Shown here: piece by piece, positions 4,309-33,469 of the stretch
How positions within the stretch are numbered: position 1 is the first letter of the stretch
How the letters are laid out: the number at the start of each line of letters is the position of its first letter
Source: Myxococcota bacterium
GTDB lineage: Bacteria; Myxococcota_A; UBA9160; UBA4427
DNA length: 38,491 bases
Direction: 5' to 3'
NCBI GenBank assembly: GCA_028284295.1
Contig: JANQSB010000132.1
Span: forward strand, 1-38,491
The notes under the pieces: model-generated
What the model saw: the letters and a program-made list of their open reading frames with translations, nothing else
Database searches by the model: none
Told to the model about the DNA's origin: nothing
Translations under genes and position numbers: made by a program

Positions 4309-4821
4309 GTGCTCCCCGAACAAGAGCTGCTCTCGACCATCGCAGAGATGGGTATCGGGATCGTTGGCTTCGCGGTCGTCGCCGACATCCTTCGCTCCCG
4401 TTCTACCAGCGACGTGGTGCGGCTGTACAATCTTCGAGACGTCGCCGAGATCGGCCTGATGATCGCGGTCCTGAGTGTCTTCCCTTCCATGCTTCACGGC
4501 CTCGGGCTCTCGGCCGAGGCCAGCTGGCGCACGACGGGCGGCGGCGTTCTGGTCTGGACTGGGATCGGCGTCGCCAGCTCGTTCCGCAGGCGGGGGCCGG
4601 CATCTCTGGTCGGCGCTGCCAGAAGCAATCGGCTCGTCTCGGTCATCGTCTACATGCTGATCGGGCTCAACCTGGCACTTGCGTTCTCGAACCTGGTTGG
4701 CGCGGGTCCATCTTCTGGAGCTCGACACGTGGCGTGGGCGCTGTCGGCGCTCGGTCAAGCCGGAACCATGTTCATATCGTCGGTGTTCAGTCGTTCAGCC
4801 GAGGTGCCCGCTACCCAATAG
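4309..4821 (+). CDS. Cassette family B protein (multi-pass membrane, unknown function), copy 1
   Basis: The GTG at 4309 gives VLPEQELLSTIAEMGIGIVGFAVV, the same N-terminal length as the paralogues. An alternative GTG at 4285 lies inside attC R'. About 5 predicted TM segments. Confidence 0.65.
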   Translation: MLPEQELLSTIAEMGIGIVGFAVVADILRSRSTSDVVRLYNLRDVAEIGLMIAVLSVFPSMLHGLGLSAEASWRTTGGGVLVWTGIGVASSFRRRGPASLVGAARSNRLVSVIVYMLIGLNLALAFSNLVGAGPSSGARHVAWALSALGQAGTMFISSVFSRSAEVPATQ

Positions 4822-4929
4822 ACCGTTGCAGTGGCCTGCTGCTCAGGTGGCCTACCGAGGCGTGGTAGAATCGCGACGTCCATGTTGTTTCGTCTACGTG
4901 CAGGCCGCCGCAAGTCCGGTCTGTGAGGC
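4813..4929 (+). repeat. attC site (degenerate boxes)
   Basis: CCCAATAGACCGTTGCAGTGGCCTGC (4814-4839) is complementary to GCAGGCCGCCGCAAGTCCGGTCTGTGAGG (4900-4928). The boxes are ACCCAAT and GTGAGGC. GTGGTAGAAT box at 4862-4871. Confidence 0.55.
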
Positions 4930-4953
4930 GGCACGAAGAAATCGGAGGGTGCG

Positions 4954-5328
4954 ATGGACCTCGGCGAACATCTCCTCTGCCTCGACGTAGAGAACCTCGA
5001 AGCCTCGCTCGATTTCTACACGAAGCTCGGCTTCCGTCTCACCGAGGATCATCGACCCAAGCGATGGGCCGTGGTCGCCCATAGCAATCTCGTCGTGTGC
5101 CTGTTCGAAGGAATCGAAGAGAACCTCATGAACTTTCGAGGTGGCGACATCAGCGCGATCCAAGAGGAGGCGGTCGCGAACGGCCTCGACTTCACGAAGC
5201 CCGCTAAGCAGCACCCAGATGGCTCCTGGAACGCCACGATCCATGATCCCGATGGGAATGCGATCTTCTTCAACACCTTCCCCGATGAGCGAGAGCGCTA
5301 CGCCAGGACTGGCAGCATCGCCGACTAG
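4954..5328 (+). CDS. VOC (glyoxalase/bleomycin-resistance/dioxygenase fold) protein
   Basis: 124 aa. LCLDVENLEASLDFYTKLGFRL...IHDPDGNAIFF is the typical VOC motif pair. GGAGGG lies upstream of the ATG. Confidence 0.8.
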   Translation: MDLGEHLLCLDVENLEASLDFYTKLGFRLTEDHRPKRWAVVAHSNLVVCLFEGIEENLMNFRGGDISAIQEEAVANGLDFTKPAKQHPDGSWNATIHDPDGNAIFFNTFPDERERYARTGSIAD

Positions 5329-5334
5329 CGCGAT

Positions 5335-5496
5335 GCCTGACATCGGTGATGCAGCGTTCCAGCGCCGTCCGGTGGGCACTGGGGCAGTGCTGCCTGCCTG
5401 GGCTACGCCCATCAGCCGGCTCGGCTACCTTCGGCGCCTGGTGGCCCATTCACCTTCGACTCGGGCGCTCGCAGCTGGGTGCCGTATCCGTTGGGC
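5335..5496 (+). repeat. attC site (long class, 162 bp)
   Basis: R'' GCCTGAC at 5335-5341 and R' GTTGGGC at 5490-5496. The core ACGCCCATCAGCCGGCTCGGCTACCTT...GGGCGCTCGCAGCTG is shared with the site at 498. Confidence 0.75.
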
Positions 5497-5511
5497 TTCA
5501 GGCACAGCGGA

Positions 5512-6042
5512 GTGAGCCTTCCCCAGACGCTCGAGACCAGTCGGCTCAGGCTGCGCCCGTTCGCGGAATCGGATGGCCCAGCAGTCCTCGACTACTCGCA
5601 GGACGCCGATTGGGCGGAGTACCAGCAGACGACGCCAGCGTCCGAGAGGGAGGCAGAGCGTGTCGTCGCCGAGCTTCGACTTCGCGACTGGGAGAGTCAA
5701 CCTGCCTGGGCAATCACTCGCTCGGGCCAGGTGATCGGTCTCGTCAGCCTCGTCTTCCGTGCCGAGTACCGGATCGCTTCTCTCGGATACGGGATTCATC
5801 GGGATCACCGGGGTCTGGGGCTCACCGGAGAGGCGATTCGAGCGATCCTTGCCGAGGCCTTCGCCGCCCATCCGGAGCTTGCGAGGGTCACGGCGAACAC
5901 CGATGCGAGAAATCACAGCTCGAGTCGCTTGCTCGAGAAGCTCGGCTTCACCCTGGAAGGGACTCTTCGGTCGGGTGCGCTGACCGCCAAGGGCGAGCTT
6001 GTGGACGGCGCCATCTATGGGCTCCTCCGGTCTGAATGGTAG
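5512..6042 (+). CDS. GNAT N-acetyltransferase (RimJ/RimL-like)
   Basis: The GTG at 5512 is the first start after attC R'. LETSRLRLRPFAESD...GYGIHRDHRGLGLTGEAIRAIL...ARNHSSSRLLEKLGF is the Acetyltransf_3-type pattern. Confidence 0.8.
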   Translation: MSLPQTLETSRLRLRPFAESDGPAVLDYSQDADWAEYQQTTPASEREAERVVAELRLRDWESQPAWAITRSGQVIGLVSLVFRAEYRIASLGYGIHRDHRGLGLTGEAIRAILAEAFAAHPELARVTANTDARNHSSSRLLEKLGFTLEGTLRSGALTAKGELVDGAIYGLLRSEW

Positions 6043-6228
6043 GCCGCCCCGGCAGAGGACAGAGACTGCGATCGCGGAGCTACGCCGCGATGTGGGCCTG
6101 TCCCGAAGCGAGTTCATCGAAGCGGTCGAGCCGAATCGAGAGGCCTTCGTATCCAGCTGTTCCGGAGTCGCGGATGGCGCTCCTGACGGAGTGGCTCCCC
6201 ATCGACGGTCCGAGCTAGGCCACCCCCC

Positions 6229-6391
6229 GCCCGACGATCGAGCAGCCTTGCTCACGGTCGATGCCGGGTGGGGCGTGGCAGCCTCTGCCTCCTGGCCCGG
6301 TCCGACCGGCGCCTGTGGCATCATCGGGTCCCGAGCCGAGCGCTCATCGCGCTTCCAGGGTGGGAGTAGCCGAGCGCCCGATCCACCAGGC
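6229..6391 (+). repeat. attC-like site (degenerate)
   Basis: Starts with GCCCGAC (6229-6235), carries a central GTGGCATCAT box (6315-6324), and ends GATCCACCAGGCGGCG (compare GATCCGTCAGGCAGCG at 7823). Confidence 0.45.
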
Positions 6392-6401
6392 GGCGTGGCG
6401 C

Positions 6402-6773
6402 GTGGAGATCCGCACCAAGCGAATCTACGAAGAGCCCAGCTCGTCCGACGGTGTTCGGGTTCTGATCGACAGGCTCTGGCCTCGCGGAGTCTCCAAGGAC
6501 GCCGCCGCCATCGACTTCTGGGCCAAAGCCGTGGCCCCCTCGAACGAGTTGAGAGTCTGGTACGGGCACGATCCCACCAAGTGGCCCGAGTTTCGCCGGC
6601 GCTACTTCGCGGAGCTCGACGCGAACCCCGAGGGCGTGGCCGAGGTCGAGTCCCGGATCGACGGCGTCACTGCGACTCTGGTCTTCAGCTCGAAGGAGGA
6701 GCGAATGAACAACGCCTCCGCGTTTCGCGACTATCTCGAGCGGCGCAGATCGATCCGCCGGGCGGCGCGATGA
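6402..6773 (+). CDS. DUF488-family protein
   Basis: GTG start just after the attC. VRVLIDRLWPRGVSKDAAAIDFWAKAVAPSNELRVWYGHDPTKWPEFRRRY is the DUF488 signature. Confidence 0.75.
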   Translation: MEIRTKRIYEEPSSSDGVRVLIDRLWPRGVSKDAAAIDFWAKAVAPSNELRVWYGHDPTKWPEFRRRYFAELDANPEGVAEVESRIDGVTATLVFSSKEERMNNASAFRDYLERRRSIRRAAR

Positions 6774-7240
6774 GTGGCTTCGAGATCCGCGAGGCCCTTC
6801 CCTCGGATCGCGACGCCATCCTCTCCTTCGACCACGTGTTTCAGGCCGATCCGGGCCGGGCGTCGTTCATCGACAGAGCGCTCCGCACGGCGACTTGTCT
6901 CGTTGCGGACCGCAACGGTCGGGCAGTCGCCTATGGGGTCCTCGAATACACCTTCTTCGGAAACGGGTTCGTCTCCATGGTGTACGTCGCCGAGGCGCAC
7001 AGGCGGAGGGGCATGGGTCGCGCTCTACTGGTGGCCCTCGCGGATCGATGCACCACAGAGAAGCTGTTCACATCCACGAATCGCTCGAACGAGTCGATGC
7101 AGTCGCTCCTCGGGACCCTCGGATACGTCCCGAGCGGCTCGATCGAGAACCTGGACCCAGGCGATCCCGAGCTCGTCTACTTCCTCGATCTGCGCGGCTG
7201 TGCATCGATCGGGGTGGCAGAGCCTACGCTCCCGACCTGA
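6770..7240 (+). CDS. GNAT N-acetyltransferase
   Basis: Its ATG overlaps the DUF488 stop (ATGA). VYVAEAHRRRGMGRALLVAL is the acetyl-CoA binding motif. Confidence 0.75.
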   Translation: MSGFEIREALPSDRDAILSFDHVFQADPGRASFIDRALRTATCLVADRNGRAVAYGVLEYTFFGNGFVSMVYVAEAHRRRGMGRALLVALADRCTTEKLFTSTNRSNESMQSLLGTLGYVPSGSIENLDPGDPELVYFLDLRGCASIGVAEPTLPT

Positions 7241-7649
7241 CGCCGTACAGAGTCACGGGCTCGATACGATAGGTTCGCGCCGTGCCGTCCTGGAAGCTCG
7301 AACTGCGGTCGGCAACGAACCACTCGGGTGGGTCCGGAAACGCCCGTTGCAGCTGGGCGAGGACACGCTCTTCCGGCTCACGGATGCTGAAGCGGCCTTC
7401 GCCATGCACGCTTTCCCACTCGTAGACACCATCCGAGAGGCTCGTGTCTACCTGGAAGCCGACGCGCGAATCCTGCGCGGCCAGCTCGCTCTTTCGCCCG
7501 GGTGAAGTGATTCCCACGAGGCACCCGTCGAGGTAGGTGCACCCCAGCGTGATCACGTACGGGACTTCCGAGACGAACGCCACCCTCACGAGCTCTGCAC
7601 GTTTCAGCACCGCCTCGATCTCGTCCCGACCGAGCTGCGTCTCGGGCAT
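7224..7649 (-). CDS. Pyridoxamine 5'-phosphate oxidase-family (FMN-binding split-barrel) protein
   Basis: Starts at MPETQLGRDEIEAVLKRAELVRVAF with GGAGGA upstream. It is convergent with the GNAT gene and overlaps it by 17 nt. Confidence 0.7.
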   Translation of the reverse strand: MPETQLGRDEIEAVLKRAELVRVAFVSEVPYVITLGCTYLDGCLVGITSPGRKSELAAQDSRVGFQVDTSLSDGVYEWESVHGEGRFSIREPEERVLAQLQRAFPDPPEWFVADRSSSFQDGTARTYRIEPVTLYGVRSGA

Positions 7650-7701
7650 CGCGTCCTCCTGCCAAGGGCATCCGAGCGACGATGGTCGCGAATGCAACGT
7701 T

Positions 7702-7833
7702 GCCTAACAAGTCGTTTCGGTAGAGGTGCTCCAGCTGCGCCGAGCCCGACCGTGGTACAATCGAGTCCGTACCAGGCGTTCCCGCGGCGCTGCGGCAGAT
7801 CGCCGCGCTCCGCCGAACCGCGATCCGTCAGGC
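7702..7833 (+). repeat. attC site (132-bp class)
   Basis: R'' GCCTAAC at 7702-7708 and R' GTCAGGC at 7827-7833. Arms TTTCGG... and ...CCGAACCG are complementary. GTGGTACAAT box at 7752-7761, 54 nt from R''. Confidence 0.8.
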
Positions 7834-7851
7834 AGCGCGAGGTCGAGGGAC

Positions 7852-8472
7852 ATGGAGTGGTATTCCGGCCAGTTCATGATCTTCTTCGCGACGATCGATC
7901 CCGTGAGCACCCTCGCCCTGTTCGTGGGGCTCACGGCCAGGGTCTCGGCACGAGACCGTAGGAGGGTCGCGTTTCGGTCGGTCGGATACTCCGCCGCGAT
8001 TCTGGTGGCATTCGTCCTCGTTGGGCAACTCCTCCTCGGTTCGCTGGGCATCCGGCTCGCCTCGTTCCAGCTCGCGGGCGGCATCATCTTCTTCCTGTTC
8101 GGCGTCCAGATGGTGTTCGGGTCGGGGGCCGCAGCCTCCAGCGAAGGCCCCGAGGCCGAGCACGACATTGCGGTCTTTCCGCTTGCAGTGCCATCCATGG
8201 CCAGTCCCGGGTCCATCCTCGCTGCCGTGGTTCTCACCGACAACCGGGAGTTCACCGTCGCCGAGCAAGCCGTCTCCACCCTTCTCCTGCTGGCCGTGCT
8301 CGGCATCACCCTGGTCCTCCTGCTCCAGGCGAATCGGATCTACAGCCTGATCGGGAACGCGGGATCCACACTGCTGGTGCGGATTCTGGGCCTGGTTCTC
8401 GCGGCACTCGCAGTCGAGATGGTCCTCGAGGCAGGCAGCGAGCTCCTGCTCGAGATGCGCGCTGCCCAGTGA
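7852..8472 (+). CDS. MarC-family (UPF0056) integral membrane protein
   Basis: 206 aa. FATIDPVSTLALFVGLT...DIAVFPLAVPSMASPGSI are typical MarC motifs. Confidence 0.8.
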   Translation: MEWYSGQFMIFFATIDPVSTLALFVGLTARVSARDRRRVAFRSVGYSAAILVAFVLVGQLLLGSLGIRLASFQLAGGIIFFLFGVQMVFGSGAAASSEGPEAEHDIAVFPLAVPSMASPGSILAAVVLTDNREFTVAEQAVSTLLLLAVLGITLVLLLQANRIYSLIGNAGSTLLVRILGLVLAALAVEMVLEAGSELLLEMRAAQ

Positions 8473-8599
8473 CGACACGCCGCAGCTGACCGTTCCCCGC
8501 TCTTCCCGATCGACCTGCTCTACCCTCCGGACGTCGAAGCGGGTACCTCCGGCTGCCCGGCCGGTCCGGCCGGAAGCCGAGGGGATCGCGTCGCCAGGC
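8467..8599 (+). repeat. attC site (132-bp class geometry, degenerate boxes)
   Basis: CAGTGAC (8467-8473) includes the stop codon. A TACCCT box at 8521-8526 lies exactly 54 nt downstream. The site ends GTCGCCAGGCAG (8590-8601). Confidence 0.55.
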
Positions 8600-8618
8600 A
8601 GTAGAGGTCCCATGCATC

Positions 8619-9203
8619 GTGGTTTCGTTACGAAGGCCGTCTGACTCCGAGATCCACGGGGTGCTCGGTGCCCGAGCCGAGTTCACCTATCCCGAAGTGG
8701 GCGCGACCGCCAAGCTCGCAGAGGGCCGGTCCGAGCCCGGTCTCGCCACCACCTACGACGTGGATCATCACCGCTTCCCGCTCGGCCTGGGGCGCCCTCT
8801 CTACGAGCGCGCGTGCGCTGCACTCATCGCATGGCGGCATTTCGAGATCCCGTGGCTGAAGCTCTGCGGGGGGCGTCCGGTCTCGCCTGGCCAGGTCGTG
8901 GCTACCCTCCTCCCCATCGCCGGCCTCTGGTTCCTGAACCCGTGCCGGGTCGTCTATGCGGAGCTCCAGCCCGGGGCCGACGCCGCAGCCTTCGCCTACG
9001 GCACTCTCCCCGGCCACCCGGAATGCGGGGAAGAGCGCTTCTCCGTCATCTACGACCCTGCGTCCGATCGCGTGCTCTACGAGATCACCGTGTTCTCGCG
9101 CCCAGGGCGGCTCTTCTCACGGGTCGGCTACCCGTTCGCTCGCCGGCTGCAGCGCAGCTTCGTGGCTGCGTCCGCCGCGGCTCTGGCGGAGGCTGCTACC
9201 TGA
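8619..9203 (+). CDS. DUF1990-family protein
   Basis: GTG start. Carries LRRPSDSEIHGVLGARAEFTYPEVGAT...AFAYGTLPGHPECGEERFSV, the DUF1990-type motifs. Confidence 0.6.
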   Translation: MVSLRRPSDSEIHGVLGARAEFTYPEVGATAKLAEGRSEPGLATTYDVDHHRFPLGLGRPLYERACAALIAWRHFEIPWLKLCGGRPVSPGQVVATLLPIAGLWFLNPCRVVYAELQPGADAAAFAYGTLPGHPECGEERFSVIYDPASDRVLYEITVFSRPGRLFSRVGYPFARRLQRSFVAASAAALAEAAT

Positions 9204-9368
9204 CATCGGCGTTGCTGCGGCCGCGGCGACGCCTAACAAGGCGTCGCGGCGGGCAGGGTCATCGCCCGGCATCGCTGTCGGTCGGCTCGTGCGATCCGAC
9301 GGCGTCCGTTCTGGTATCCTCGCGACTCAACCAGCGGCGTTCGCGGCCGAACGCCGCTGCTGTCAGGC
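9198..9368 (+). repeat. attC site with duplicated R'' (ACCTGAC and GCCTAAC)
   Basis: ACCTGAC at 9198-9204 contains the stop codon, and there is a second GCCTAAC at 9231-9237. R' GTCAGGC lies at 9362-9368. ATCGGCGTTGCTGCGGCCGCG is complementary to CGCGGCCGAACGCCGCTGCT. CTGGTATCCT box at 9311-9320. Confidence 0.7.
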
Positions 9369-9387
9369 GCCGCAAGGCCGGGAGGTC

Positions 9388-9873
9388 GTGGTGAACTGGG
9401 ACGCGCTCGGGGCGATCGCGGAACTGCTCGGCGCTCTGGGCGTGGTCGTGACACTCGCGTACCTCGCCCTTCAGATCCGTCGCAGCAACATCCTCGCGGT
9501 GGCGGAGTCGCACCGGTACTCCAATCAGGTGGCCGCGGCGAGCATTCTCGCGGTCGTACAAGACGGAGAAGTGGCGAAGATATTCAGGGAGGGGCTGGTC
9601 GATCGCGCCGGTCTGGCCGCCGACGATCTGACTCGCTTCGACATGCTTCTCAGCAGTCTCGTCGGCGCCTTGTCGGCTTCCATCATGGACCAGATGACAC
9701 TGGGAATCTACGGAGACGACAGGATCTCCGACCAGAGATCCTCGCTACGGATGATCCTGTCGACTCCGGGTGGAGCGGCTTGGTGGAGTCTCCACCGCGA
9801 GAGCTACCCTAGCGCGTTCCAGAGATTCGTCGCCGAGGAAGCCGCCGATCCGGAGCCGCCCGCCGAACGATGA
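9388..9873 (+). CDS. Cassette family A protein, copy 2
   Basis: GTG start (9388 or 9391) after GGGAGG. Carries VNWDALGAIAELLGALGVVVTLAYLALQIRRSN...TPGGAAWW. Its stop overlaps the next ATG (ATGA at 9870). Confidence 0.7.
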   Translation: MVNWDALGAIAELLGALGVVVTLAYLALQIRRSNILAVAESHRYSNQVAAASILAVVQDGEVAKIFREGLVDRAGLAADDLTRFDMLLSSLVGALSASIMDQMTLGIYGDDRISDQRSSLRMILSTPGGAAWWSLHRESYPSAFQRFVAEEAADPEPPAER

Positions 9874-10907
9874 GAGCTGTCGTCTACCACCAGCACGGTT
9901 CGACCGACGAACTCGTCGTCGAGGACCTTCCCGAGCCGCAACTTCGCCCCGGCGACGCGCTCATCGAGGTCGGCGCCGCATCCCTGAACGGCTTCGACCC
10001 GATGATGCTCGCCGGGAGTACCTCGCTCGAGACACCGCTTCCCATGGTCCCATGCGGGGACTTCGCGGGCCGGATCCTCGCGTTCGCGGAGGGTTCCGAC
10101 CCGGGCCCGTGGAAGGAAGGAGATCGGGTCTGCCCGCATCCGTTCGTGCTCGGAGAGGGGATGACCGGCGAGACACGCGTCGGTGCAGCCTGCGAGCGGG
10201 TCCGGATCCCGATCCCGAACCTGATCGCGATCCCGGACGGGGTAAGCGACGTACAGGCAGCCAGCCTGCCGATCGCCTACGGCACCGCCTATCGGATGAT
10301 GATCACGCGCGGAGAAGTCAGGGCCGGGGAGACGGTGCTCGTCCTCGGCGCGACCGGGGGCGTCGGCACCGGCTGTGTCCAACTGGCCAAGAGCCTCGGC
10401 GCAACCGTGATCGCCACCGGTAGCTCGGAGGCGAAGCTCGACGCACTGCGGGATCTCGGGGCCGACCACGTGATCGACAACAAGCAGGACGACTGGGTCC
10501 GCGCCGTTCACGAGATCGCCGGCAAGCCTCGGATGCTCGGATCCGGTGGCGTCGACGTCGTGATCAACTACATCGGTGGGGAGACCTGGGCGGAGTCACT
10601 CCGCTGCTTGCGGTCCGACGGACGGATGTTGACCTGCGGCGCGACGATCGGCTTCAATCCGCCGACCGACATCCGCTACATCTGGACCTACGAGCAGCGC
10701 ATCATCGGCTCGAACGGCTGGACGCCAGACGAGCAGCGCAAGCTCCTCGAGCGCGTCGCCGCAGGCGACCTCGCCCCCGTCATCGACTCCGTCGTGTCCC
10801 TCGAAGGCGCCAGGAGTGCCATGGACGCACTCATCGACCGCCGTGTCTTCGGGAAGGTGGTCATCGAACCCGCGCTCGGGCCGAGGTCTGGTAGCCTCTG
10901 CAAGTGA
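9870..10907 (+). CDS. Zinc-type alcohol dehydrogenase / quinone oxidoreductase (MDR superfamily)
   Basis: 345 aa. GETVLVLGATGGVGTGCVQLAKSLGATVIATGSS is a Rossmann motif, and the N-terminus is GroES-like. The C-terminal tail runs into attC-like sequence. Confidence 0.85.
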   Translation: MRAVVYHQHGSTDELVVEDLPEPQLRPGDALIEVGAASLNGFDPMMLAGSTSLETPLPMVPCGDFAGRILAFAEGSDPGPWKEGDRVCPHPFVLGEGMTGETRVGAACERVRIPIPNLIAIPDGVSDVQAASLPIAYGTAYRMMITRGEVRAGETVLVLGATGGVGTGCVQLAKSLGATVIATGSSEAKLDALRDLGADHVIDNKQDDWVRAVHEIAGKPRMLGSGGVDVVINYIGGETWAESLRCLRSDGRMLTCGATIGFNPPTDIRYIWTYEQRIIGSNGWTPDEQRKLLERVAAGDLAPVIDSVVSLEGARSAMDALIDRRVFGKVVIEPALGPRSGSLCK

Positions 10908-10973
10908 AAGCTGGGCGCTTCGGGCCGGCCAGCCGCGCGCCCCGTCCGCTAGGCGGCCAGGCGGAGAGTCGAT

Positions 10974-11456
10974 CTGGACGGCCACGAAGCACTTTCTGGG
11001 ATCGCCGAGATCGCCGTCGCGCTCGCAGGCTTCTCCGGCCTCTTCTCGGCGCTGCGGCGAGGCCAAGGGCAGGTCTTCCAAGAGCCCGAGCGGAGGGCGC
11101 TTCTCTTCCTGCTCGCAGCGAGTCTGGGTGCCGCGGTCCTCGCTCTTCTCCCCCTGCCCCTGCTCCTCTTCGGCGTTCCTGAGGCCACCGTATGGCTCAT
11201 CGGTTGCTCGGCACTGGGCGTCTTCATGGCGGCCACCGGCGTCTGGGGCACACGGTCAGCCCGGGTGGCACGCTTCCCGATCGTCTTCTGGACGTTGACC
11301 TCCATCGCCTGGGGCTTCACTCTGCTCCAGTTCGTCGGCGCGACGGGCCTGCTCGGGCTCCCCCGCGTCGCTGTCTTCGCGGCGGGTCTCTGGTGGCTCA
11401 TCTTGAGCGCTGCGCTGCAGTTCTTCGTTCAGGCGCTGGCCACCACACGATCCTAG
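10974..11456 (+). CDS. Cassette family B protein, copy 2 (no canonical start codon)
   Basis: The frame is open from 10953 (TAG at 10950). LDGHEALSGIAEIAVALAGFSGLF aligns with the paralogue N-termini, but the aligned start position is CTG. There is no ATG, GTG or TTG before ATG 11226. Confidence 0.5.
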   Translation: MDGHEALSGIAEIAVALAGFSGLFSALRRGQGQVFQEPERRALLFLLAASLGAAVLALLPLPLLLFGVPEATVWLIGCSALGVFMAATGVWGTRSARVARFPIVFWTLTSIAWGFTLLQFVGATGLLGLPRVAVFAAGLWWLILSAALQFFVQALATTRS

Positions 11457-11469
11457 ACCGACGGGGGTC

Positions 11470-11499: not shown

Positions 11500-11500
11500 C

Positions 11501-11548: not shown

Positions 11549-11549
11549 G

Positions 11550-16352: not shown

Positions 16353-16826
16353 ATGACGATTCAGGATCTCGGTAGCCTCGGAGAGCTGATCGCTGCCGTC
16401 GCCACGGTTGCAACGCTGATCTATCTCGCCGCCCAGATCCGCCAGAATACGTCGACGGTTCGCTCGAGCAGTGCGGCGGCGCAGAACCAGAACCAGAACA
16501 CCCTCCTTCTCAGTCTCGCGCAGGACCCGGAGCTCAACCGGATCTTCTGGGCGGGCCTGGAGGCTCGGAGCCGGCTGGAAGCCGCGGAGCAGCGCCGATT
16601 CGATGCCATCATGGCTGCGATGCTGAACAACTACGAGCAGACCTGGCGCTTCTTCAACGAACGCACCATCGAGGAGGGCGCCTGGTTGGGCCAGCTCGAC
16701 TCGATCCGCTGGTTCGTCGCGCAGCCCGGCTTCGAGGAGTACTGGACGAAGTGGAGCAACATGGTCTCGCATGACTTCGCCGAGGTCCTGATGGACGCCA
16801 GCCGGTCCGGGAGCGGCTCGGCCTGA
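16353..16826 (+). CDS. Cassette family A protein, copy 3
   Basis: Carries MTIQDLGSLGELIAAVATVATLIYLAAQIRQNT...QPGFEEYW. The stop TGA lies inside GCCTGAC (16821-16827). Confidence 0.75.
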   Translation: MTIQDLGSLGELIAAVATVATLIYLAAQIRQNTSTVRSSSAAAQNQNQNTLLLSLAQDPELNRIFWAGLEARSRLEAAEQRRFDAIMAAMLNNYEQTWRFFNERTIEEGAWLGQLDSIRWFVAQPGFEEYWTKWSNMVSHDFAEVLMDASRSGSGSA

Positions 16827-17122: not shown

Positions 17123-17683
17123 ATGACGCTATTCGAGTACGTCGCGATCGCCTTCTCGCTCGTCTTCTCCTTCAGCGCCATGCGGCTCCTGTCGGGTCTT
17201 CCCTATGCGATCCGCCCGGGCAAGCGCTACTGGGTTCATCTCGCGTTCGTCCTGATCCATCTCCTTGGCACCTCGCTGAGCTTCTGGGCCTTCTGGGGGC
17301 TTCGGGACACGGACTGGACGCTGCCGAAGTTCCTTCTGGTCCTCGGTTCGCCCGGTGCGGTCTTCTTCATCTCGTGTGCGCTCGTACCAGAGTCCCCCTC
17401 CGCCATCACGTCCTGGCGGAGCCACTACTTCGCGACGAGGCGTTCGTTCTTCCTCGGACTGATCGTCTGGGCTCTGGTCGGCAGCGGGGTGACGACCTTC
17501 GTCGCGGGCCTTCCCTGGCTCCATCCCGTACGAGCCAGTCAGGCCTTCCTTCTCCTGCTCGGTGCGCTCGGAATGTCCTTCGCCAGCCCGCGAGCACACG
17601 CCGCACTCGCGTTGGGTGTCATCGCCGCGCTGGCAGTCATTGCGTCGACCGTCTACTTCCAACCCGTGTCCATCCCTCGATGA
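17123..17683 (+). CDS. Hypothetical multi-pass membrane protein
   Basis: 186 aa with ~6 hydrophobic segments. Its stop overlaps the next ATG (ATGA). Confidence 0.6.
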   Translation: MTLFEYVAIAFSLVFSFSAMRLLSGLPYAIRPGKRYWVHLAFVLIHLLGTSLSFWAFWGLRDTDWTLPKFLLVLGSPGAVFFISCALVPESPSAITSWRSHYFATRRSFFLGLIVWALVGSGVTTFVAGLPWLHPVRASQAFLLLLGALGMSFASPRAHAALALGVIAALAVIASTVYFQPVSIPR

Positions 17684-18213
17684 CAGCTGCGGACGCACTG
17701 CCGACGATCGCCGAGATTGCCGTCACCCTGGCGGGCTTCAGCAGCCTCCTCGTCGTGTTTCGCCCGACCGCCACGTCCCGGTGGACCGAACACGAGCTGG
17801 TCCGGATCCGTGCGCTCATCACGACCTGTGTCGTGGTGCTCGTCTGCGCCCTGGTCCCGTTCGGACTCGCCGGGCTGCGCTTCTCCGACGACGTGAGCTT
17901 CGGAGTTCCGCTCGCGGCATACGGGCTCTTCAATCTCGTATACCTGACGCTCAACGTGAGAAAGATCATGTCTCAGAAGATCCGGGTCTCGGCCCCTCGG
18001 TTGACCCTACCGGTCCTCGCGATCTCGGCAGCGGTCAACCTCGTGGTGCTCTCGAGTGGACTCGGGATCTTCCTTCCCTTCGATCCAGGAGTCCTGGTGC
18101 CCGGCCTCGTGTGGGGACTGGTGGCCGCGGTCGTCACCCTTCTGGCGACGGTGACCTTCCTCACGCAGTCCGCGGCCGACGACCGGGAAGACGTCGAAGC
18201 CGGTCCGAGATAG
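17680..18213 (+). CDS. Cassette family B protein, copy 3
   Basis: Carries MTAADALPTIAEIAVTLAGFSSLLVVF. It is translationally coupled to 17123..17683. Confidence 0.7.
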   Translation: MTAADALPTIAEIAVTLAGFSSLLVVFRPTATSRWTEHELVRIRALITTCVVVLVCALVPFGLAGLRFSDDVSFGVPLAAYGLFNLVYLTLNVRKIMSQKIRVSAPRLTLPVLAISAAVNLVVLSSGLGIFLPFDPGVLVPGLVWGLVAAVVTLLATVTFLTQSAADDREDVEAGPR

Positions 18214-18366: not shown

Positions 18367-19143
18367 GTGTCGCCTGGCAGCCTTCGGCTGTCACGAGTCC
18401 TTGCGGGGTCGCTCGCGGTCGCCGTCACCGTTTCGACCTGGGAGCCTTTCGGCTCCGGCTTCCTCATCGGCCACGGCCCCTCCTTCCGCCGCACTCTGAT
18501 CGTGATGGTGTGGCTCGCGGCCTTCTCGGCGTCCTTTCCGCGCCGCATGGGTTCCGTGCCGTCCCAGGGAGTGTGGGCGGCATCGTGGATCGTGCTGCTC
18601 CCGTTGGCTCTGTTCTGCTGGTGGCGCTACGCGGATGCCTGAGGTTCACGACGAGGCCCGAAGGGTCCGGCCGCCAGGCGGCAGCCGTTGAGCGGGCTCA
18701 CCTATGCGCAGTACCTGGCGAGGCGCGGCCTATCGGGCCAGGCTTCCACGCGAGAGGTGCTGCTGGGCCCGTGGTCCGCACCGGGCTTCCACCTGTTCTG
18801 GCGCCGCTGGAATCCGCACCTCGGGTACCTGCTCTTCCGCACCTATGTGGCCCTGGGCGGCGGCCGCCACCACGCGCTCTCTTCTCTCGTCGTCTTCCTC
18901 CTCGCCGGCGCGGCCCATGACCTCGTGGTCCCGCTTCTCACCGGCTTCCCGTCGATCGGCGTGACGGTCGCGTTCGGCTTCTATTGGGCCGCGAGCAACG
19001 GCTGCCGCATCGCCGGGAGCTTCGCCCGCTTCCGAAGGTGGCCGAAGTCCGCCTGCGTGTCGCTCAACCTGGCTCTGGTCGGGGCCGGTCTCGCTCTCGG
19101 CGGAGTGGCGCAGCACGCCTTCCTTGCCCGTATCGCTGCCTAA
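18367..19143 (+). pseudogene. MBOAT_2 / wax-synthase-like membrane acyltransferase interrupted by an in-frame TGA
   Basis: ORFs 18367..18642 and 18688..19143 are in the same frame and separated only by the TGA at 18640-18642. The downstream part carries PWSAPGFHLFWRRWNPHLGYLLFRTYV, the MBOAT FWRRWN motif. Confidence 0.5.
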
Positions 19144-19261
19144 CATTCTCGGGAAGAGCGCCCCCCGGCATGTGGGGAGGCATCGCGGCACCGACGCGTC
19201 GCGGTTCGCAGCGCCCGCAGCCTGCGGTACCCTCCCCGTGCGATTCACTCTCGATCCAGGC
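19138..19261 (+). repeat. attC site (long-class left arm)
   Basis: R'' GCCTAAC at 19138-19144 holds the stop TAA. TACCCT box at 19228-19233. The site ends GATCCAGGCGG (R'-like TCCAGGC at 19255-19261). Confidence 0.55.
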
Positions 19262-19277
19262 GGAGTGGCTGTCCCTC

Positions 19278-19520
19278 TTGAGCCTGCAAGACCTCGGTAG
19301 CATCGGCGAGCTCATCGGCGCGTTCGCCGTCGTCGTCTCGCTCGTGTACCTGTCGTCCCAGATTCGCCAGAACACGAGGCAGATCGACGAGAACACCAGG
19401 GCCGCGCAGGCCGCCGCCTCCGATTCCAGCATCCGCCACGCCTTCGTGGCGCGACGGATGATCATCGAGAACGAGGACGCCTCGCCCACGGCGATCCGAG
19501 CTTGCGTCGGGGGCATCTAG
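19278..19520 (+). pseudogene. Cassette family A gene, 3'-truncated (80 aa)
   Basis: TTG start. SLQDLGSIGELIGAFAVVVSLVYLSSQIRQNT is intact, but the ORF stops at about half the family length, at TAGCCGTGTCGGA. Confidence 0.6.
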
Positions 19521-19536: not shown

Positions 19537-20316
19537 ATGACCCAGCTGACCGGACGAAACGGAATCTCGATCGGGTTCGAGACCTTCGGCTCGGGTCCGC
19601 CCCTGGTGCTCGTCCACGGTGCGTTCACGAACCGCGTGTCCAACTGGATCACCGTTCGGGACGGGCTGGGTGCGCGCTTCACCGTCCACGCCGTGGACCG
19701 ACGCGGTCGTGGGGAGAGCTCCTCCGAGCCCGCGAGCTCGACTCGTGATGAATTCGATGACCTGGCCATGGTGATCTCTTCGGTGGAAGAGCCGGCCTTC
19801 GTGCTCGGACACTCGTACGGTGCCCACGTTGCGCTGGGGGCCGCGTCGCGGGTACCCGAGAAGGTGCGGAAGCTGATTCTCTACGAGCCTCCCACGGCGA
19901 GCTCGCTCTCGGCCGAGACGGCGCGTGCTCTCGAGAACGATGCCCACCGTGCCGATTGGGACGCTTTCGTCGCCCGCTTCTTCCGCGAGGTGGCCCAGGC
20001 TTCCACCGAAGAGCTCGACGAGCTTCGGAGCTCGCCGATCTGGGGAATGCTCGTCGATGGAGCGAAGCCGACGGTTTCGGACATTCGTGCGCTCCGCAGC
20101 TACGACTTCGATCCGCAGGAGTTCCGTTCCCTGGCCGTTCCCGTGACCTTCCTGTGCGGAAGCGAGAGCCCGACGATTCAGTCCGTGACGACGGACGAGC
20201 TGATGGCGACGCTCCCGGATGCCACCCGGATCGAGCTCGAGGGGCAGGGGCACGACGGGATGTATCGCAACCCGCGGCAGTTCATCGATACGGTGGAGCG
20301 GGTCTTCGGGTCGTAG
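19537..20316 (+). CDS. Alpha/beta-fold hydrolase
   Basis: 259 aa. PPLVLVHGAF forms the oxyanion region, VLGHSYGA is the nucleophile elbow GxSxG, and there is a C-terminal GHD. Confidence 0.85.
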   Translation: MTQLTGRNGISIGFETFGSGPPLVLVHGAFTNRVSNWITVRDGLGARFTVHAVDRRGRGESSSEPASSTRDEFDDLAMVISSVEEPAFVLGHSYGAHVALGAASRVPEKVRKLILYEPPTASSLSAETARALENDAHRADWDAFVARFFREVAQASTEELDELRSSPIWGMLVDGAKPTVSDIRALRSYDFDPQEFRSLAVPVTFLCGSESPTIQSVTTDELMATLPDATRIELEGQGHDGMYRNPRQFIDTVERVFGS

Positions 20317-20320
20317 CCGT

Positions 20321-20429
20321 GTCGAAGCATCGGCTCGATTGACCGGGGTCGCCGTCTGGCGGCATACTGCCGGCTCGGGTCGCACCCAGTCACCGCGATC
20401 GCTGGCCGCGGAGCGCCGATCCGTTCCGC
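20321..20429 (+). repeat. attC site (TTGACC-N18-CATAMT class)
   Basis: Starts with GTCGAAG (20321-20327). The left arm CATCGGCTCG is complementary to CGGAGCGCCGAT on the right. R' GTTCCGC at 20423-20429. Confidence 0.55.
20339..20368 (+). promoter_or_regulatory. Sigma70-like promoter inside attC
   Basis: TTGACC (20339-20344), 18 nt, then CATACT (20363-20368), reading toward the family A gene at 20480. Confidence 0.5.
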
Positions 20430-20479
20430 CGGTCGGCCGTGCAGGCGCGAACACTCACCCTGGAAAGGCACCCTCTCCG

Positions 20480-20983
20480 ATGACGAACAAGCGCAGCGGG
20501 TTGGAGCAGGCCGCTCTCGTCGCGGAGATCCTGGGTGGGATCGCGGTGGTCGTCTCGGTGATCTACCTGGCGGTGCAGATCTCCGACAACACCCGCATCC
20601 TCCGCAGTCAGACGCACTACAGCGCTCTCGAGGCACTGCAGAGGCCCTTCGAGATGATGCTCGAGAGCGACTCGCTGGCCGAGCAGCTCGTCGCGTGTCG
20701 CGAGGCACCGCACGGTGTCGCGGAAGCCGTGTGGAGACGCTGCCGGAACTACTACTTCATGCAGGCGAACGGCTGGGAGTACACCTACTACCAGCATCTC
20801 GACGAGGCCCTGCCGCCGTCGCTCTGGCCCGGCGTGGACGGATACATGGGCGGTCAGGCCCGGACCAATCCGGGCTGGGTGCGCTTCTGGGAGGAGATGG
20901 CCGACGGCTTCGGCGAGCCCTTCCGTTCGTACATCGAGGAGCGGATCCGGGAGAACCCGGCGCACGGCCAGCCGCGCGAGTAG
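20480..20983 (+). CDS. Cassette family A protein, copy 4 (divergent)
   Basis: Carries LEQAALVAEILGGIAVVVSVIYLAVQISDNT...NPGWVRFWEEMADGFGEPF, which preserves the TM, the QI(R/S)xN motif and the PGxxxxW features. Confidence 0.7.
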   Translation: MTNKRSGLEQAALVAEILGGIAVVVSVIYLAVQISDNTRILRSQTHYSALEALQRPFEMMLESDSLAEQLVACREAPHGVAEAVWRRCRNYYFMQANGWEYTYYQHLDEALPPSLWPGVDGYMGGQARTNPGWVRFWEEMADGFGEPFRSYIEERIRENPAHGQPRE

Positions 20984-23912: not shown

Positions 23913-24389
23913 GTGTCGCCCTCCGTGGACGCGACGCACTCAGATCTCCGAACGGGCGAGGCCCATCCGGCCGAGGTGCCCGACTCGCGGTCGCGCTGGC
24001 TGCTGCGGGGCTCGCTGGTGGTGGCCTGCGCGATCGCGGTGGTCGCCTGCTGGGGTCTCGGAAGTCCGGCGCCACACCTGGAGAGCGATCCCGAGCTCGC
24101 CCGCCTGTTGCGGTCGATGGTGTTGCTGAAGGCTGCGGTGATGGTCGCGGCGTTCGCGGGCCTGATGTGGCGCTTCCGCTGGCCGCTGTCGCTCGGCCTC
24201 GGGTCCGGCTACATCGCGGCGGCGGCTCTCGCCTCCGGGTCCCTCGTCCCGATCTGGAATCTCACGCACGTGGCCGTTGCGGCCGTGCTGTTCCACGTGG
24301 GTGCGGCGATGCTCGTCGTCGGCGCCCTGCTCGATCGATCCGCCCCGTGGCGCCTGCCGGGCTCTGCCTCTTCGGGGCGCGTCGTCTGA
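23913..24389 (+). CDS. Hypothetical membrane protein
   Basis: GTG start 6 nt after the VOC stop. 158 aa with four hydrophobic segments. Confidence 0.5.
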   Translation: MSPSVDATHSDLRTGEAHPAEVPDSRSRWLLRGSLVVACAIAVVACWGLGSPAPHLESDPELARLLRSMVLLKAAVMVAAFAGLMWRFRWPLSLGLGSGYIAAAALASGSLVPIWNLTHVAVAAVLFHVGAAMLVVGALLDRSAPWRLPGSASSGRVV

Positions 24390-24435: not shown

Positions 24436-24948
24436 ATGGATGCAGACTCCCGGGACCTTCTACTGACAGCGGCGGAGATCGCGGTCGCCTTCATGGGCTT
24501 CGCGAGCCTCGTCGGAGTCTTTCTGGCCCGGAACCGGGGCGGCCTGCCGCCTCGCATCCGGGCCGCGATGCAGTCGTTGATCGACTACGGGCTGCTCGCG
24601 CTGCTGGCGTGCGCGGTCCCGCTGGTCCTCCAGGTCTTCGATCCCGCCAGGCCGCACTGGGACCTGGCCAGCGGCATCGTGCTCGCGCTGGGGGTCCTCT
24701 ACGGGCTCGTGGCACACCACTTCTACCGGGAGGCGCTGGCCGAGGTCCTTCGGACCGGGAGCTTCCTGCTGTGGCTGCTCTTCATCGGCGACTTCGTCGC
24801 GTACGCGAGCCTCGGGGTCAACGCCACGGGCTGGCCCGGCGACCGAAGCGCTGCGGTCTACTTCTGCGCGTCCGTCGTGTGGTTCCTCTTCGGCTCTGCG
24901 ATCTCGTTCCGTGGCATCATGGTCCTGGCGTGGTCGGACGACGGCTAG
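24436..24948 (+). CDS. Cassette family B protein, copy 4
   Basis: Carries MDADSRDLLLTAAEIAVAFMGFASLVGVF and has the same TM layout as the other copies. Confidence 0.7.
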   Translation: MDADSRDLLLTAAEIAVAFMGFASLVGVFLARNRGGLPPRIRAAMQSLIDYGLLALLACAVPLVLQVFDPARPHWDLASGIVLALGVLYGLVAHHFYREALAEVLRTGSFLLWLLFIGDFVAYASLGVNATGWPGDRSAAVYFCASVVWFLFGSAISFRGIMVLAWSDDG

Positions 24949-30537: not shown

Positions 30538-31038
30538 ATGGAAGGTGCCGACATCCTTCAGACGATCGCCGAGGTCGCGATCGCATTGACGGGCTTCACG
30601 GGGATCGTCGTCGCGCTCGGCAATCGCGGAGGCGTGCCGGTCTCGGGATTCGCCCTGGTGCGCTTCCGGATCCTGCTGGCGGCCAGCCTCGCCGCGCTCG
30701 CCTTCTCGCTGATTCCCTTCTTCTGGTACTACCTCGACATCCCCGCGAGCACGTCCTGGGCGGTCTCGAGCGGTCTGGCTCTGGTCTTCATGGTCCCGAT
30801 CGTCGTCTACGACGTTCGCGCCTTCCGCGAGCATGCCGATCAGATCCCGGTCTTCGAGCGACGAGCCGCGCCCGCCATCGCGATCCTGGGCGCCTCGCTG
30901 TGGCTCGCCCAGGTGGCGAACGTGCTGCACTTCCGCTCGTTCGGACCCTACCTGGCGGTTCCCCTGTGGTTCCTCGGCTTCTCGGCCCTCTCCTTCGCGC
31001 GGCTTCTCTTCACGCGTCAGGGTGGAGAGCATCCGTGA
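30538..31038 (+). CDS. Cassette family B protein, copy 5
   Basis: Carries MEGADILQTIAEVAIALTGFTGIVVAL. A GGAGGA RBS lies upstream. Confidence 0.7.
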   Translation: MEGADILQTIAEVAIALTGFTGIVVALGNRGGVPVSGFALVRFRILLAASLAALAFSLIPFFWYYLDIPASTSWAVSSGLALVFMVPIVVYDVRAFREHADQIPVFERRAAPAIAILGASLWLAQVANVLHFRSFGPYLAVPLWFLGFSALSFARLLFTRQGGEHP

Positions 31039-31936: not shown

Positions 31937-31982
31937 CCTCGAGGGCACGCGAGGACACCTCGCGCATCACGCGCACAGCGCG

Positions 31983-32012
31983 TTGACCCCGGCCGGCCGC
32001 GGGAGGCATAAT
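31983..32012 (+). promoter_or_regulatory. Sigma70-like promoter upstream of the Coq4-like gene
   Basis: TTGACC (31983-31988), 18 nt, then CATAAT (32007-32012), 40 nt before ATG 32052. The architecture matches the promoters at 17007 and 20339. Confidence 0.5.
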
Positions 32013-32051
32013 CCGCCTCGGGCCGAGATCGACGGCGACGGGAACCGAACG

Positions 32052-32813
32052 ATGGCAGACCATCCGAGGCGGATCCGCTGGGCCGACGCACGCGCGGCAC
32101 TTCGCCGGCTGCAGGCCGACCCGAACGCGACGGACGCGGTCTTCGAAATCGTCGAGGCGCTGGCGGGAAGGCACCCGCTCCACCTGCTCGAGCGTGTGCG
32201 CCGCGACCCCGAAGGCGCACGCCTGCTCCGCGAGCGCCCGCTCTTCGATCCTCGCCACGCCGACATGGAAGCGCTCGAAGCGCTTCCGGAGGGCAGCTTC
32301 GGTTGCGAGTTCGCCACCTGGATGCGCGACAACGACTTCGAGCCGGGCCTCGCCGAGCGCGACCGTGAGGGCGATCCCGACCTCGTCTATCTGGCGACCC
32401 GCCTCACCCAGGTCCACGACTTCTGGCACGTGCTCTCCGGATACAACCGCGATCCCCTGGGCGAGCTCGGGATCCTCGCGTTCAGCGTCGGGCAGAACGG
32501 GACGCGCGGGTTCGCGTTCATCCTCGCGAACGTGGTGTGGCAGAGCATCCGAAGCAACTGGCGCGAGGAGCGTCGTCCCTGGAGTCCGCTGATCGGCTAC
32601 CTGTGGCGCGGGTTCCGGGCCGGACGCAAGGCCCGCTTCCTGCCTCCGCTCGTGCTCGAGGATTGGTTCGCGTTGCCCCTCGACCGCGTTCGGGAGACGC
32701 TCGGGATCGAGCCGCTTCGGCGGTCGCTGAACGCCGAGGCCCTGCCGCCGATCCACTCGCCCTTGCTGCGGTCCGCGGGCGGCGCCCGGAAGCGGGAGTA
32801 CGTCCCCTGCTAG
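32052..32813 (+). CDS. Coq4-family protein
   Basis: HDFWHVLSGYNRDPLGE is the HDxxH-(x)11-E motif characteristic of Coq4. 253 aa. Confidence 0.7.
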   Translation: MADHPRRIRWADARAALRRLQADPNATDAVFEIVEALAGRHPLHLLERVRRDPEGARLLRERPLFDPRHADMEALEALPEGSFGCEFATWMRDNDFEPGLAERDREGDPDLVYLATRLTQVHDFWHVLSGYNRDPLGELGILAFSVGQNGTRGFAFILANVVWQSIRSNWREERRPWSPLIGYLWRGFRAGRKARFLPPLVLEDWFALPLDRVRETLGIEPLRRSLNAEALPPIHSPLLRSAGGARKREYVPC

Positions 32814-32832
32814 CTGCCGCGAGACGGCTCGC

Positions 32833-32973
32833 GTGACGATCCAGGACCTGGGGAGCATCGGCGAGCTCGTCGCGGCCGCGGCGGCCATCGCGACCCTGGC
32901 GTATCTCGCGGTGCAGATCCGACACCTGTCGAACGCCACCAGGACCGACGCCGCGCGGCCTGCGGCGCGATAG
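32833..32973 (+). pseudogene. Cassette family A gene fragment (46 aa, N-terminal TM only)
   Basis: GTG start. VTIQDLGSIGELVAAAAAIATLAYLAVQIR is followed by unrelated residues and a TAG, 7 nt before the family B start. Confidence 0.55.
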
Positions 32974-32980
32974 TCGGAAC

Positions 32981-33469
32981 GTGTCGGCCGAATCCTTCCT
33001 CTCGTCCGTCGTCGAGGTGGCCATCGGCATCGGCGGCTTCGCGGGCATCATCGCGGCGATTCGTCAGGGTCGGCTCGCCGATTGGCCTGCCGACCAACGG
33101 ATCCTGCTCCAGATGCTCCTCGTGGCCTCGGCGGCGGCGATCAGCTTCGCGCTGCTGCCCTCGATCCTGGCCGAGGCGCAGCTGGACGAGCCGACGATAT
33201 GGCGGATCGGAAGCGCTCTGCTGCTGGCGTGGCAGGTGGGGATCGCCGTGCATCGGACCCGGCAGTTCCGGAGCTTCGGGGTGACACCCTGGTTCCCGCG
33301 GCTGCTCGGGGTGTGGGTGGCGGGGATCATCGCCTTCCAGGTGGCGAACCTCGGGCTGGCGATGTCGTGGCCGTACCTGGTCGGCGTGTTCGGCCTGCTG
33401 GTGAACGGGTTCTCCTTCTTCCTGCTCCTGCTCTTCGGGCGCGGGGACCCGCCGCCCGACGCCCCCTGA
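32981..33469 (+). CDS. Cassette family B protein, copy 6
   Basis: GTG start. Carries SAESFLSSVVEVAIGIGGFAGIIAAI. The stop lies inside CCCTGAC. Confidence 0.7.
   Translation: MSAESFLSSVVEVAIGIGGFAGIIAAIRQGRLADWPADQRILLQMLLVASAAAISFALLPSILAEAQLDEPTIWRIGSALLLAWQVGIAVHRTRQFRSFGVTPWFPRLLGVWVAGIIAFQVANLGLAMSWPYLVGVFGLLVNGFSFFLLLLFGRGDPPPDAP

Follow-up and report, generated by a model that had tools for sequence, protein, structure and literature searches.

A family of small, predicted five-helix membrane proteins present in six divergent copies in a cassette array of a Myxococcota bacterium

A stretch of 38,491 nucleotides (nt) from a Myxococcota bacterium (assembly GCA_028284295.1, contig JANQSB010000132.1, positions 1 to 38,491, forward strand; hereafter the window) carries six divergent genes of one protein family, designated family B. 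Structure modelling and charge statistics describe family B as stand-alone five-helix inner-membrane proteins of about 165 amino acids (aa) with a predicted N-out/C-in topology, and the family is in circulation as single-gene integron cassettes among marine genomes, mostly high-GC and Gammaproteobacteria-like. As a whole, the material is best explained, tentatively, by an autonomous, envelope-protective inner-membrane protein built around a buried carboxylate, with the second window copy, which has CTG in place of a canonical start codon, as a live gene. The evidence for membership, topology, cassette status and independent acquisition is given first, followed by the start codon of copy 2, the neighbouring families and the structure of the array.

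Family B members in the window

A hidden Markov model (HMM) of the family was run against a six-frame translation of the whole window and matched six frames (E 3e-35 to 7e-49); no seventh family B frame was found. These are precisely the six copies that a preliminary description, made from the letters of the window, had grouped into one family (coordinates in Table 1). All six lie on the + strand, in the same orientation as the attC recombination sites of the window, and are translated into proteins of about 160-177 aa. The copies were aligned over their full length with MAFFT at 21-28% identity, with L8, E13, G20, F21, P59 and R108 invariant in that six-copy alignment. End-to-end alignment and invariant residues together indicate full-length homology and not just a common hydrophobic N-terminus, which disposes of the concern that the N-terminal motif might be the only similarity. 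The start of copy 1 is ambiguous, as GTG 4285, GTG 4291, TTG 4300 and GTG 4309 are all in frame.

Fold, topology and conserved residues

Copy 5 was modelled with AlphaFold2 from a 35-sequence alignment (predicted local distance difference test score, pLDDT, 92.2; predicted template modelling score, pTM, 0.85). The model consists of five helices (4-31, 37-65, 70-98, 105-132 and 135-161), in line with the five transmembrane (TM) segments proposed earlier. Charge bias and residue conservation were computed over 238 non-identical family B proteins. Lysine and arginine are enriched at positions 28-30, 40-44, 94-100 and 155, and aspartate and glutamate at positions 2, 5 and 70-71; this distribution points to a periplasmic N-terminus and a cytoplasmic C-terminus.

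Residues G19 and F20 are present in 100% of the proteins, P60 and W74 in 99%, E12 in 98%, L7 in 95%, A11 in 92% and F153 in 90%, and conservation is moderate at S78, N128, Y138 and the loop arginines R30, R42, R44 and R97. Across the 238 proteins neither a conserved His, Cys, Asp or Lys nor a further conserved acidic residue was found, so that family B appears unlikely to be an enzyme. Column entropy is 1.35-1.68 bits in TM1, 2.2-2.6 bits in the periplasmic-leaflet halves of TM2-TM5, and 3.3-3.6 bits in the cytoplasmic halves of TM3 and TM4 and in loop 3. Conservation is focused on TM1 (E12, G19, F20) and the periplasmic-leaflet helix halves, and the cytoplasmic TM3-TM4 hairpin is variable. 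E12, P60, W74, S78, N128 and Y138 are placed in the periplasmic leaflet by topology alone.

Searches of family, fold and genome databases

Neither the six copies nor any of the 35 aligned family B members gave a threshold match to Pfam-A 2025; the best Pfam E-value for the family was 7e-4 (MFS_1, 19 bits against a cut-off of 33.4), and this hit was inconsistent between members. Family B had no match in NCBIfam 20.0 or PHROGs, and the defence models of PADLOC-DB 2.0 matched none of the six B copies, families A and C (described below) or other unknown open reading frames (ORFs). A profile search of PDB sequences returned nothing significant (best E 0.11). The model of copy 5 was searched with Foldseek and had no fold neighbour in PDB (best E 0.53) or BFVD (best E 0.32), with TM-scores <0.5 in both. 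Searches with tblastn for copy 5 in 50,697 phage records and in a plasmid collection gave no match, two motif scans of IMG/VR gave no confirmed family B relative, and cluster look-ups returned no names. Remote-homology and structure searches (Pfam, NCBIfam, PADLOC, PHROGs, PDB, BFVD) therefore name no family, which leaves the earlier label of unknown function in place, and none of them maps family B to a known transporter or enzyme. A relationship to the SMR/DMT transporters was considered and rejected, with no PF00893 or EamA match in the 35 members, an hhalign E of 0.21 against EmrE and no such fold among the PDB results.

Family size, hosts and cassette status

A word-indexed search of 5.8 billion proteins returned 33 relatives, all annotated as 'hypothetical' and none with a Pfam domain. 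Among 1.84 billion cluster representatives (50% identity), 4,482 were matched by an exhaustive profile search with E<=1e-3, and 2,712 with E<=1e-10; almost without exception these are 160-180 aa long and align end to end. Domain fusions in a few longer homologues were rejected because the extensions, located at the N-terminus, are mis-calls. Among contigs from one genome per species, the motif of one family B subgroup matched just two metagenome-assembled genomes (MAGs), one of Halioglobus sp. and one of an unclassified gammaproteobacterium. A metagenome scan yielded 68 loci with GC contents from about 38 to 68%, a spread which indicates that the family is carried by more than one lineage.

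Canonical attC sites of ~130 nt, reading GCCTAACAAGGCGCTGCAGCTGAC...CAGCTGAGCGCCnGGTCCGTTAGGC, flank single B genes on both sides in L072, L067, L073, L050, L076, L036 and other loci. In related loci the R' core is followed after 5-25 nt by an ATG, GTG or TTG start, often behind GGAG. Single genes bracketed in this way (L072, L067, L073, L050 and L076 among them) establish B as a genuine cassette family, as had been proposed from the window. By an nhmmer model specific to this one attC type, ~30% of assessable B genes have an attC upstream or downstream; additional loci resemble cassette arrays in gene content, and in L001, L005, L010 and L085 B is an ordinary chromosomal singleton. Neighbouring genes differ from locus to locus, and no conserved neighbour gene beyond families A and C was found in high-GC or low-GC loci. 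In two samples (L008, 3512-6664, and L009, 19-3135) a B gene lies 157 nt 3' of a hybrid histidine kinase gene (HAMP-HisKA-HATPase-receiver); this is one arrangement and could be a coincidence.

Independent acquisition of the six copies

Each copy was compared with foreign proteins (best matches in Table 1) and with its paralogues in the window. The best paralogue matches were partial, with 20-35% identity and about 30 bits, and foreign bit scores were higher. Since each copy has its closest match outside the window and not among its paralogues, the six copies were acquired independently and not duplicated in place, and the array has gathered six members of different subfamilies. The family had been called expanded; this is apt for six divergent members and misleading if local duplication is meant. 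All six copies are full-length despite decayed attC sites around copies 3-6, which suggests selection on the proteins.

Start codon of copy 2

As first described, copy 2 has CTG at 10974, the family start position, and no ATG, GTG or TTG before residue 85 (ATG 11226). Its frame is open from 10953, directly after an in-frame TAG (10950-52) within the R' GCTAGGC of an attC relic, and residue 1 of the nearest homologues aligns to the CTG. GCTAGGC is followed by 19 nt that include GGAG and then by CTG, the R'-GGAG-start layout of canonical B cassettes, and a TGGTAGCCT element lies 85 nt 5' of the CTG. Copy 2 retains L7, A11, E12, G19, F20, P60, W74 and F153, is free of stops and frameshifts, and has a third-position GC content (GC3) of 0.82. 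An HMM from which window sequences were excluded gives it 102.9 bits, within the lowest 3% of the family, and gives copy 6, which has a GTG start, 105.3 bits. The closest known relative of copy 2 is 33% identical, a distance at which synonymous sites are saturated. Among 88 distinct B genes, three have no canonical start before the motif: copy 2, the gene at 4868 in L048 and a degenerate copy in L008. The L048 gene (4868-5389) is intact and belongs to another subfamily; CTG stands precisely at its start position, and past the upstream in-frame stop its frame offers no canonical start.

The preliminary description had left copy 2 as either a start-codon pseudogene or a gene with a non-canonical start. 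This was a fair choice, and the evidence leans to the latter: a functional CTG start is judged somewhat probable from the sequence, and copy 2 would then be a functioning gene with weak translation initiated at CTG 10974. A very recent pseudogene, in which ATG, GTG or TTG was changed to CTG so that the protein is not made and the rest of the ORF has had no time to decay, is a substantial alternative of clearly lower probability. It agrees with the want of a canonical start from the TAG to residue 85, the degraded attC sites on both flanks, the low HMM score and the weakness of CUG as an initiator, which in E. coli reaches 1-2% of the AUG level (Hecht et al., bioRxiv 10.1101/063800). It is opposed by the undamaged ORF with all near-invariant residues and a normal GC3, and by the preserved Shine-Dalgarno-like element and spacing; copy 6 is equally low-scoring yet has a proper GTG start. 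The L048 gene, the only other intact member with no canonical start, likewise has CTG at the start position, and CTG is just one of the seven single-base changes of GTG that would destroy a start.

Co-occurring families A and C

Two further families of membrane proteins occur beside family B. Family A proteins begin with a membrane helix bearing the motif LGxxGE...TLxYLAxQIRQNT and continue as a helical bundle of about 120 aa in the cytoplasm. An AlphaFold2 model of family A (pLDDT 93.3) had no fold neighbour in PDB. The family has 363 database relatives, all hypothetical, a few of which carry a precomputed match to DUF6082 (PF19560); the window copy at 16353-16826 matched PF19560 at E 0.013, below threshold. 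Function is likewise unassigned for DUF6082, the nearest named relative of family A, and B does not match it. Family C is a third unannotated membrane cassette family with an invariant N-terminal T-x-F-E-Y motif. Its window member is coupled to copy 3 as noted earlier, with ATG 17680 overlapping the TGA of the family C ORF, and elsewhere it stands alone behind its own attC (L044 7161-7772, L050 1339-1824, L065 351-944). Homology of B to family A (hhalign E 0.54, probability 0.1%) or to family C (hhalign E 0.15) was unsupported.

In 19 cases a family A gene is the immediate upstream neighbour of B, and in 9 cases the downstream one. A complete attC divides the majority of A-B neighbours, which are therefore separate cassettes. 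Tight coupling (gap -14 to 24 nt) is seen in six A-then-B pairs, one of them the A remnant and copy 6 in the window, and tight ATGA-type coupling also occurs in other orders: A-A (about 6), B-A (1), B-B (1) and C-B. An obligate A-then-B operon was rejected as a general rule, since most pairs are split by attC and tight coupling is seen in all orders. On a 74-kb metagenome contig (L059), positions 345-10530 hold a tandem A/B run without attC, with about 12 A and 3 B genes in 10 kb. This run and those in L048 (3329-5389) and L041 (6007-7016) are operon-like, with 4-nt ATGA overlaps and no attC. Tandem runs of this kind indicate that paralogue arrays also exist outside canonical cassette structure.

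The window as a cassette array

A strict detector overlooked the majority of attC sites, and loosening it produced many false positives in this GC-rich DNA; attC sites were detected instead with an nhmmer model built from the canonical sites of related loci. Clear sites were found at 1293-1456, 2050-2181, 3919-4048, 4155-4284, 7702-7833, 9231-9368 and 13002-13109, and relics at 4814, 10871 and 11940, among others. Sites or relics next to B genes were recognisable only at copies 1 and 2, with relics on both sides of copy 2; none was recognised at copies 3-6 by the nhmmer model or by reading of the sequence. The relic 3' of copy 1 was a partial nhmmer match (4814-4897, E 0.012), and its 3' limit in Table 1 is inferred. 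As previously noted, a VOC gene (23346-23906, Pfam Glyoxalase) and a hydrophobic ORF precede copy 4 and no attC separates the three; no attC-like match was found from ~22 to 33 kb. Core variants in the window are GTCAGGC, GCTAGGC and GTCTGTG.

The attC sites are well preserved in the left third (1-13100) and progressively degraded or absent from 13100 to 37000, and cassette-type genes continue to about 36.5 kb. Adjoining cassettes are fused, the family C gene with copy 3 through ATGA, and Coq4, the A remnant and copy 6 with gaps of 19 and 7 nt. The right part of the window looks like the old, decaying distal part of an array. The window is itself a cassette array read on the + strand. Its gene content includes TonB_C, a BrnA antitoxin, LysR, five VOC/glyoxalase genes, GNAT, GST, APH, methyltransferases, DUF488, DUF1330, ADH, a flavodoxin-like reductase and MarC, and is typical of such arrays. 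No tyrosine recombinase or integrase was found among the window ORFs scanned with Pfam (not every ORF), and the array continues past the left end of the window, which apparently comprises the entire contig.

Table 1. Positions of family B genes, neighbouring genes and associated sites in the window
Feature	Position	Strand	Remarks	Best foreign match (identity)
Family B copy 1	4309..4821	+	translation; HMM E 1e-45	metagenome protein P0006 (59%)
Family B copy 2	10974..11456	+	intact ORF, CTG at family start position; HMM E 7e-37	P0038 (33%; 76 bits)
Family B copy 3	17680..18213	+	HMM E 8e-48	P0004 (55%)
Family B copy 4	24436..24948	+	HMM E 7e-49	P0009 (49%)
Family B copy 5	30538..31038	+	structure-model copy	P0115 (52%)
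Family B copy 6	32981..33469	+	GTG start; HMM E 3e-35	P0036 (31%)
attC 5' of copy 1	4155..4284	+	nhmmer E 3.7e-6, full length; R' mutated to GTCAGGT; central TGCTAGCCT at 4206	
Degraded attC relic 3' of copy 1	4814..4940	+	R'' ATAGAC, R' GTCTGTG; TGGTAGAAT at 4863	
Short degraded attC relic 5' of copy 2	10871..10954	+	R' GCTAGGC ends relic; TGGTAGCCT at 10889	
GGAG Shine-Dalgarno-like element	10963..10966	+	7 nt before CTG 10974; sequence	
Family A	1525..2022	+	family A HMM	
Family A	8956..9873	+	family A HMM	
Family A	16353..16826	+	family A HMM	
Family A	18984..19520	+	family A HMM	
Family A	20219..20983	+	family A HMM	
Family A, truncated	32833..32973	+	46 codons, N-terminal membrane helix only; ends 7 nt before copy 6; family A HMM E 3e-11	
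Family C membrane protein	17123..17683	+	stop overlaps copy 3 ATG (ATGA)	
Unannotated hydrophobic ORF, 5' of copy 4	23913..24389	+	46-nt gap to copy 4, no attC	

The + strand has 14 occurrences of TGnTAnnnT (mostly TGGTAGCCT), an extended -10-like motif, and the - strand has none; ~7 would be expected for both strands together. Its positions are 609, 2101, 3970, 4206, 4863, 7753, 9312, 10889, 13036, 16338, 18268, 21053, 21883 and 25939. The motif always lies centrally in an attC or in an intergenic attC relic, is also present in the attC sites of related loci L023, L056 and L076, and outlasts the decay of the recombination boxes. To judge by this placement, each cassette may carry its own promoter within the preceding attC.

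Genes of the VOC/glyoxalase superfamily at 4954-5328, 11550-11915, 13051-13515 and 23346-23906 (+) and at 25523-25897 (-) form a third multi-copy cassette family in the window. The ATG (11550) of the Glyoxalase_7 gene is entered by about five tandem repeats of a 12-nt unit, GAAGGAGCGAGA (11501-11560), which amount to a row of Shine-Dalgarno-like GGAG elements before that gene; an attC stump of ~33 nt (GCCTGAC...GTTGGGC) lies just 5' of the repeats. The BrnA-type antitoxin gene at 661-969 (-) overlaps a small reverse ORF at 966-1277 (-) by 4 nt, and the two presumably form an inverted toxin-antitoxin cassette with the second ORF as toxin partner.

Discussion

Under the explanation preferred here, each family B protein would act alone in the inner membrane, having no soluble domain, fixed partner gene or enzyme-like set of conserved residues. 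Its working part would be the buried carboxylate of E12, at about one third of the depth of TM1 counted from the periplasmic end, together with the invariant G19-F20 of the same helix, and P60, W74, S78, N128 and Y138 at periplasmic-leaflet helix ends may contribute to the site. The ligand would be a cation, or else a lipid or peptide moiety with positive charge, bound where the inner membrane faces outwards, and the variable cytoplasmic TM3-TM4 hairpin would set the paralogues apart. The role could be envelope protection, as immunity to or exclusion of a membrane-active agent, or as handling of a toxic cation. Such a role is suggested by the detoxification theme of the array, the retention of several divergent versions, and the protective function of some transmembrane cassettes (bioRxiv 10.1101/2024.07.02.601686).

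Several points weigh against this explanation. No homology, fold match or experiment connects family B to any function, and no toxin gene lies near the B copies. Immunity proteins, to our knowledge, are usually devoid of an invariant buried charge. The variable face is cytoplasmic and not periplasmic, which is unexpected if the paralogues recognise different incoming agents, and the clustering of conserved residues in the periplasmic leaflet was deduced from topology only and not from model coordinates. B is sometimes translationally coupled to A or C genes, which weakens the case for strict autonomy. For copy 2, recent loss of a start codon would give an identical sequence picture, and two CTG cases among 88 B genes are thin evidence.

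Three other accounts of the family were weighed. Family B could be a new kind of small ion- or cation-handling protein that works as a parallel homo-oligomer, a channel or a proton-coupled carrier, with E12 as its site and with paralogues differing in substrate. This is unlikely, and of the three it has the most to recommend it: a single near-invariant membrane-embedded Glu in TM1, the most conserved helix, with the aromatics F20, W74, Y138 and F153; a small protein with no soluble domain; and a detoxification theme in the array. SMR (qac) genes are well-known integron cassettes, and E12 may be likened to E14, the ion or substrate site of SMR exporters. On the other side, Pfam Multi_Drug_Res and EamA gave no match, the hhalign alignment with EmrE (E 0.21) covers an irrelevant stretch, and no transporter or channel fold neighbour was found in PDB (best E 0.5, TM-score <0.5). 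E12 is not mid-membrane, the inner leaflet has no conserved polar residues, and a strong positive-inside bias fixes one topology, which speaks against an antiparallel SMR-type dimer.

A subunit role, in which B would join family A in a membrane complex and B-only cassettes would be spare parts, is distinctly unlikely. The two families share arrays (six A and six B in the window; both in L044, L059, L066 and L076), A-then-B order outnumbers the reverse by 19 to 9 with six pairs tightly coupled, and each family has a conserved Glu ~10 residues from an acidic periplasmic N-terminus, in segments that hhalign aligns. However, attC separates most A-B neighbours, 19 against 9 is not significant, and tight coupling is also seen as A-A, B-A, B-B and C-B. 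Many B genes have no nearby A (L001, L005, L010, L014, L072, L073 and low-GC loci), the hhalign match is that with E 0.54 and probability 0.1%, and next to copy 6 the A partner is reduced to 46 aa. B probably needs no fixed partner, and a functional A-B link is a live minority hypothesis. Least probable, and very doubtful, is that B cassettes are useless to the host and owe their abundance simply to their frequency in the local cassette pool and to a low cost of carriage. Expression of cassettes distant from the integron promoter is generally regarded as poor (PMC11014356), and the distal attC sites of the window are decayed, so that cassettes there can no longer be shuffled. Set against this are the canonical starts in five of the six copies and the full-length ORFs with invariant residues in all six despite decayed neighbouring attC, the promoter-like TGnTAnnnT before copies 1 and 2, and the conservation of specific residues over 238 proteins and 4,482 clusters, which implies purifying selection.

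Family B resembles three known kinds of protein in part. Bacteriocin immunity includes polytopic proteins directed against pore-formers, and arrays of orphan immunity genes are found on mobile elements. Like B, polytopic immunity proteins are small inner-membrane proteins with no soluble domain, held in many divergent versions in a mobile gene store; B differs in having no nearby toxin gene, an invariant buried carboxylate with a conserved TM1, a variable face that is cytoplasmic, and no Pfam immunity match. SMR exporters (EmrE, QacE; PF00893) share with B a small, all-helical, cassette-borne protein, an essential-looking Glu in the most conserved first helix and conserved aromatics. B has five helices and about 165 aa, in contrast to four helices and about 110 aa in SMR, and has a fixed N-out/C-in topology with its Glu one third in rather than mid-membrane.

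About one third of cassettes have been reported to encode signal peptides or TM domains (PMC10963911), and 'Brigantia' is a transmembrane-only anti-phage cassette of the Vibrio cholerae chromosomal integron (bioRxiv 10.1101/2024.07.02.601686). Cassettes of the Brigantia type and B are alike, when compared by description and not by sequence, in being single small co-oriented ORFs between attC sites that encode a membrane protein with no recognisable domain, in large arrays of the sedentary type with toxin-antitoxin and detoxification cassettes. B differs in having no PADLOC or PHROG match and in not having been found in phage records or viral contigs, and it is present in six divergent copies per array and forms a family of thousands of clusters.

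Family B is an uncharacterised protein family within a known kind of genetic element, in an ordinary-looking array, and not a new type of genetic system. New here are the scale of the family, its cassette-borne status, the independent acquisition of the six copies, the topology and conserved site, and the case of the CTG start. A more speculative view, and rather improbable at present, is that families A, B and C belong to an unrecognised, diversified membrane-protein repertoire of marine integrons, with B as a new fold class of carboxylate-dependent proteins (for immunity or exclusion, or as a cation carrier or channel) and CTG starts as a selected low-expression setting. The two CTG-started B members offer a small, testable case of non-canonical initiation in an environmental lineage. 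Most non-clinical integron cassettes have no known function, and family B is a well-defined and abundant example, with at least 4,482 clusters. It is suited to cassette-by-cassette functional screens of the kind now under way, and a phenotype for one B member would annotate thousands of proteins.

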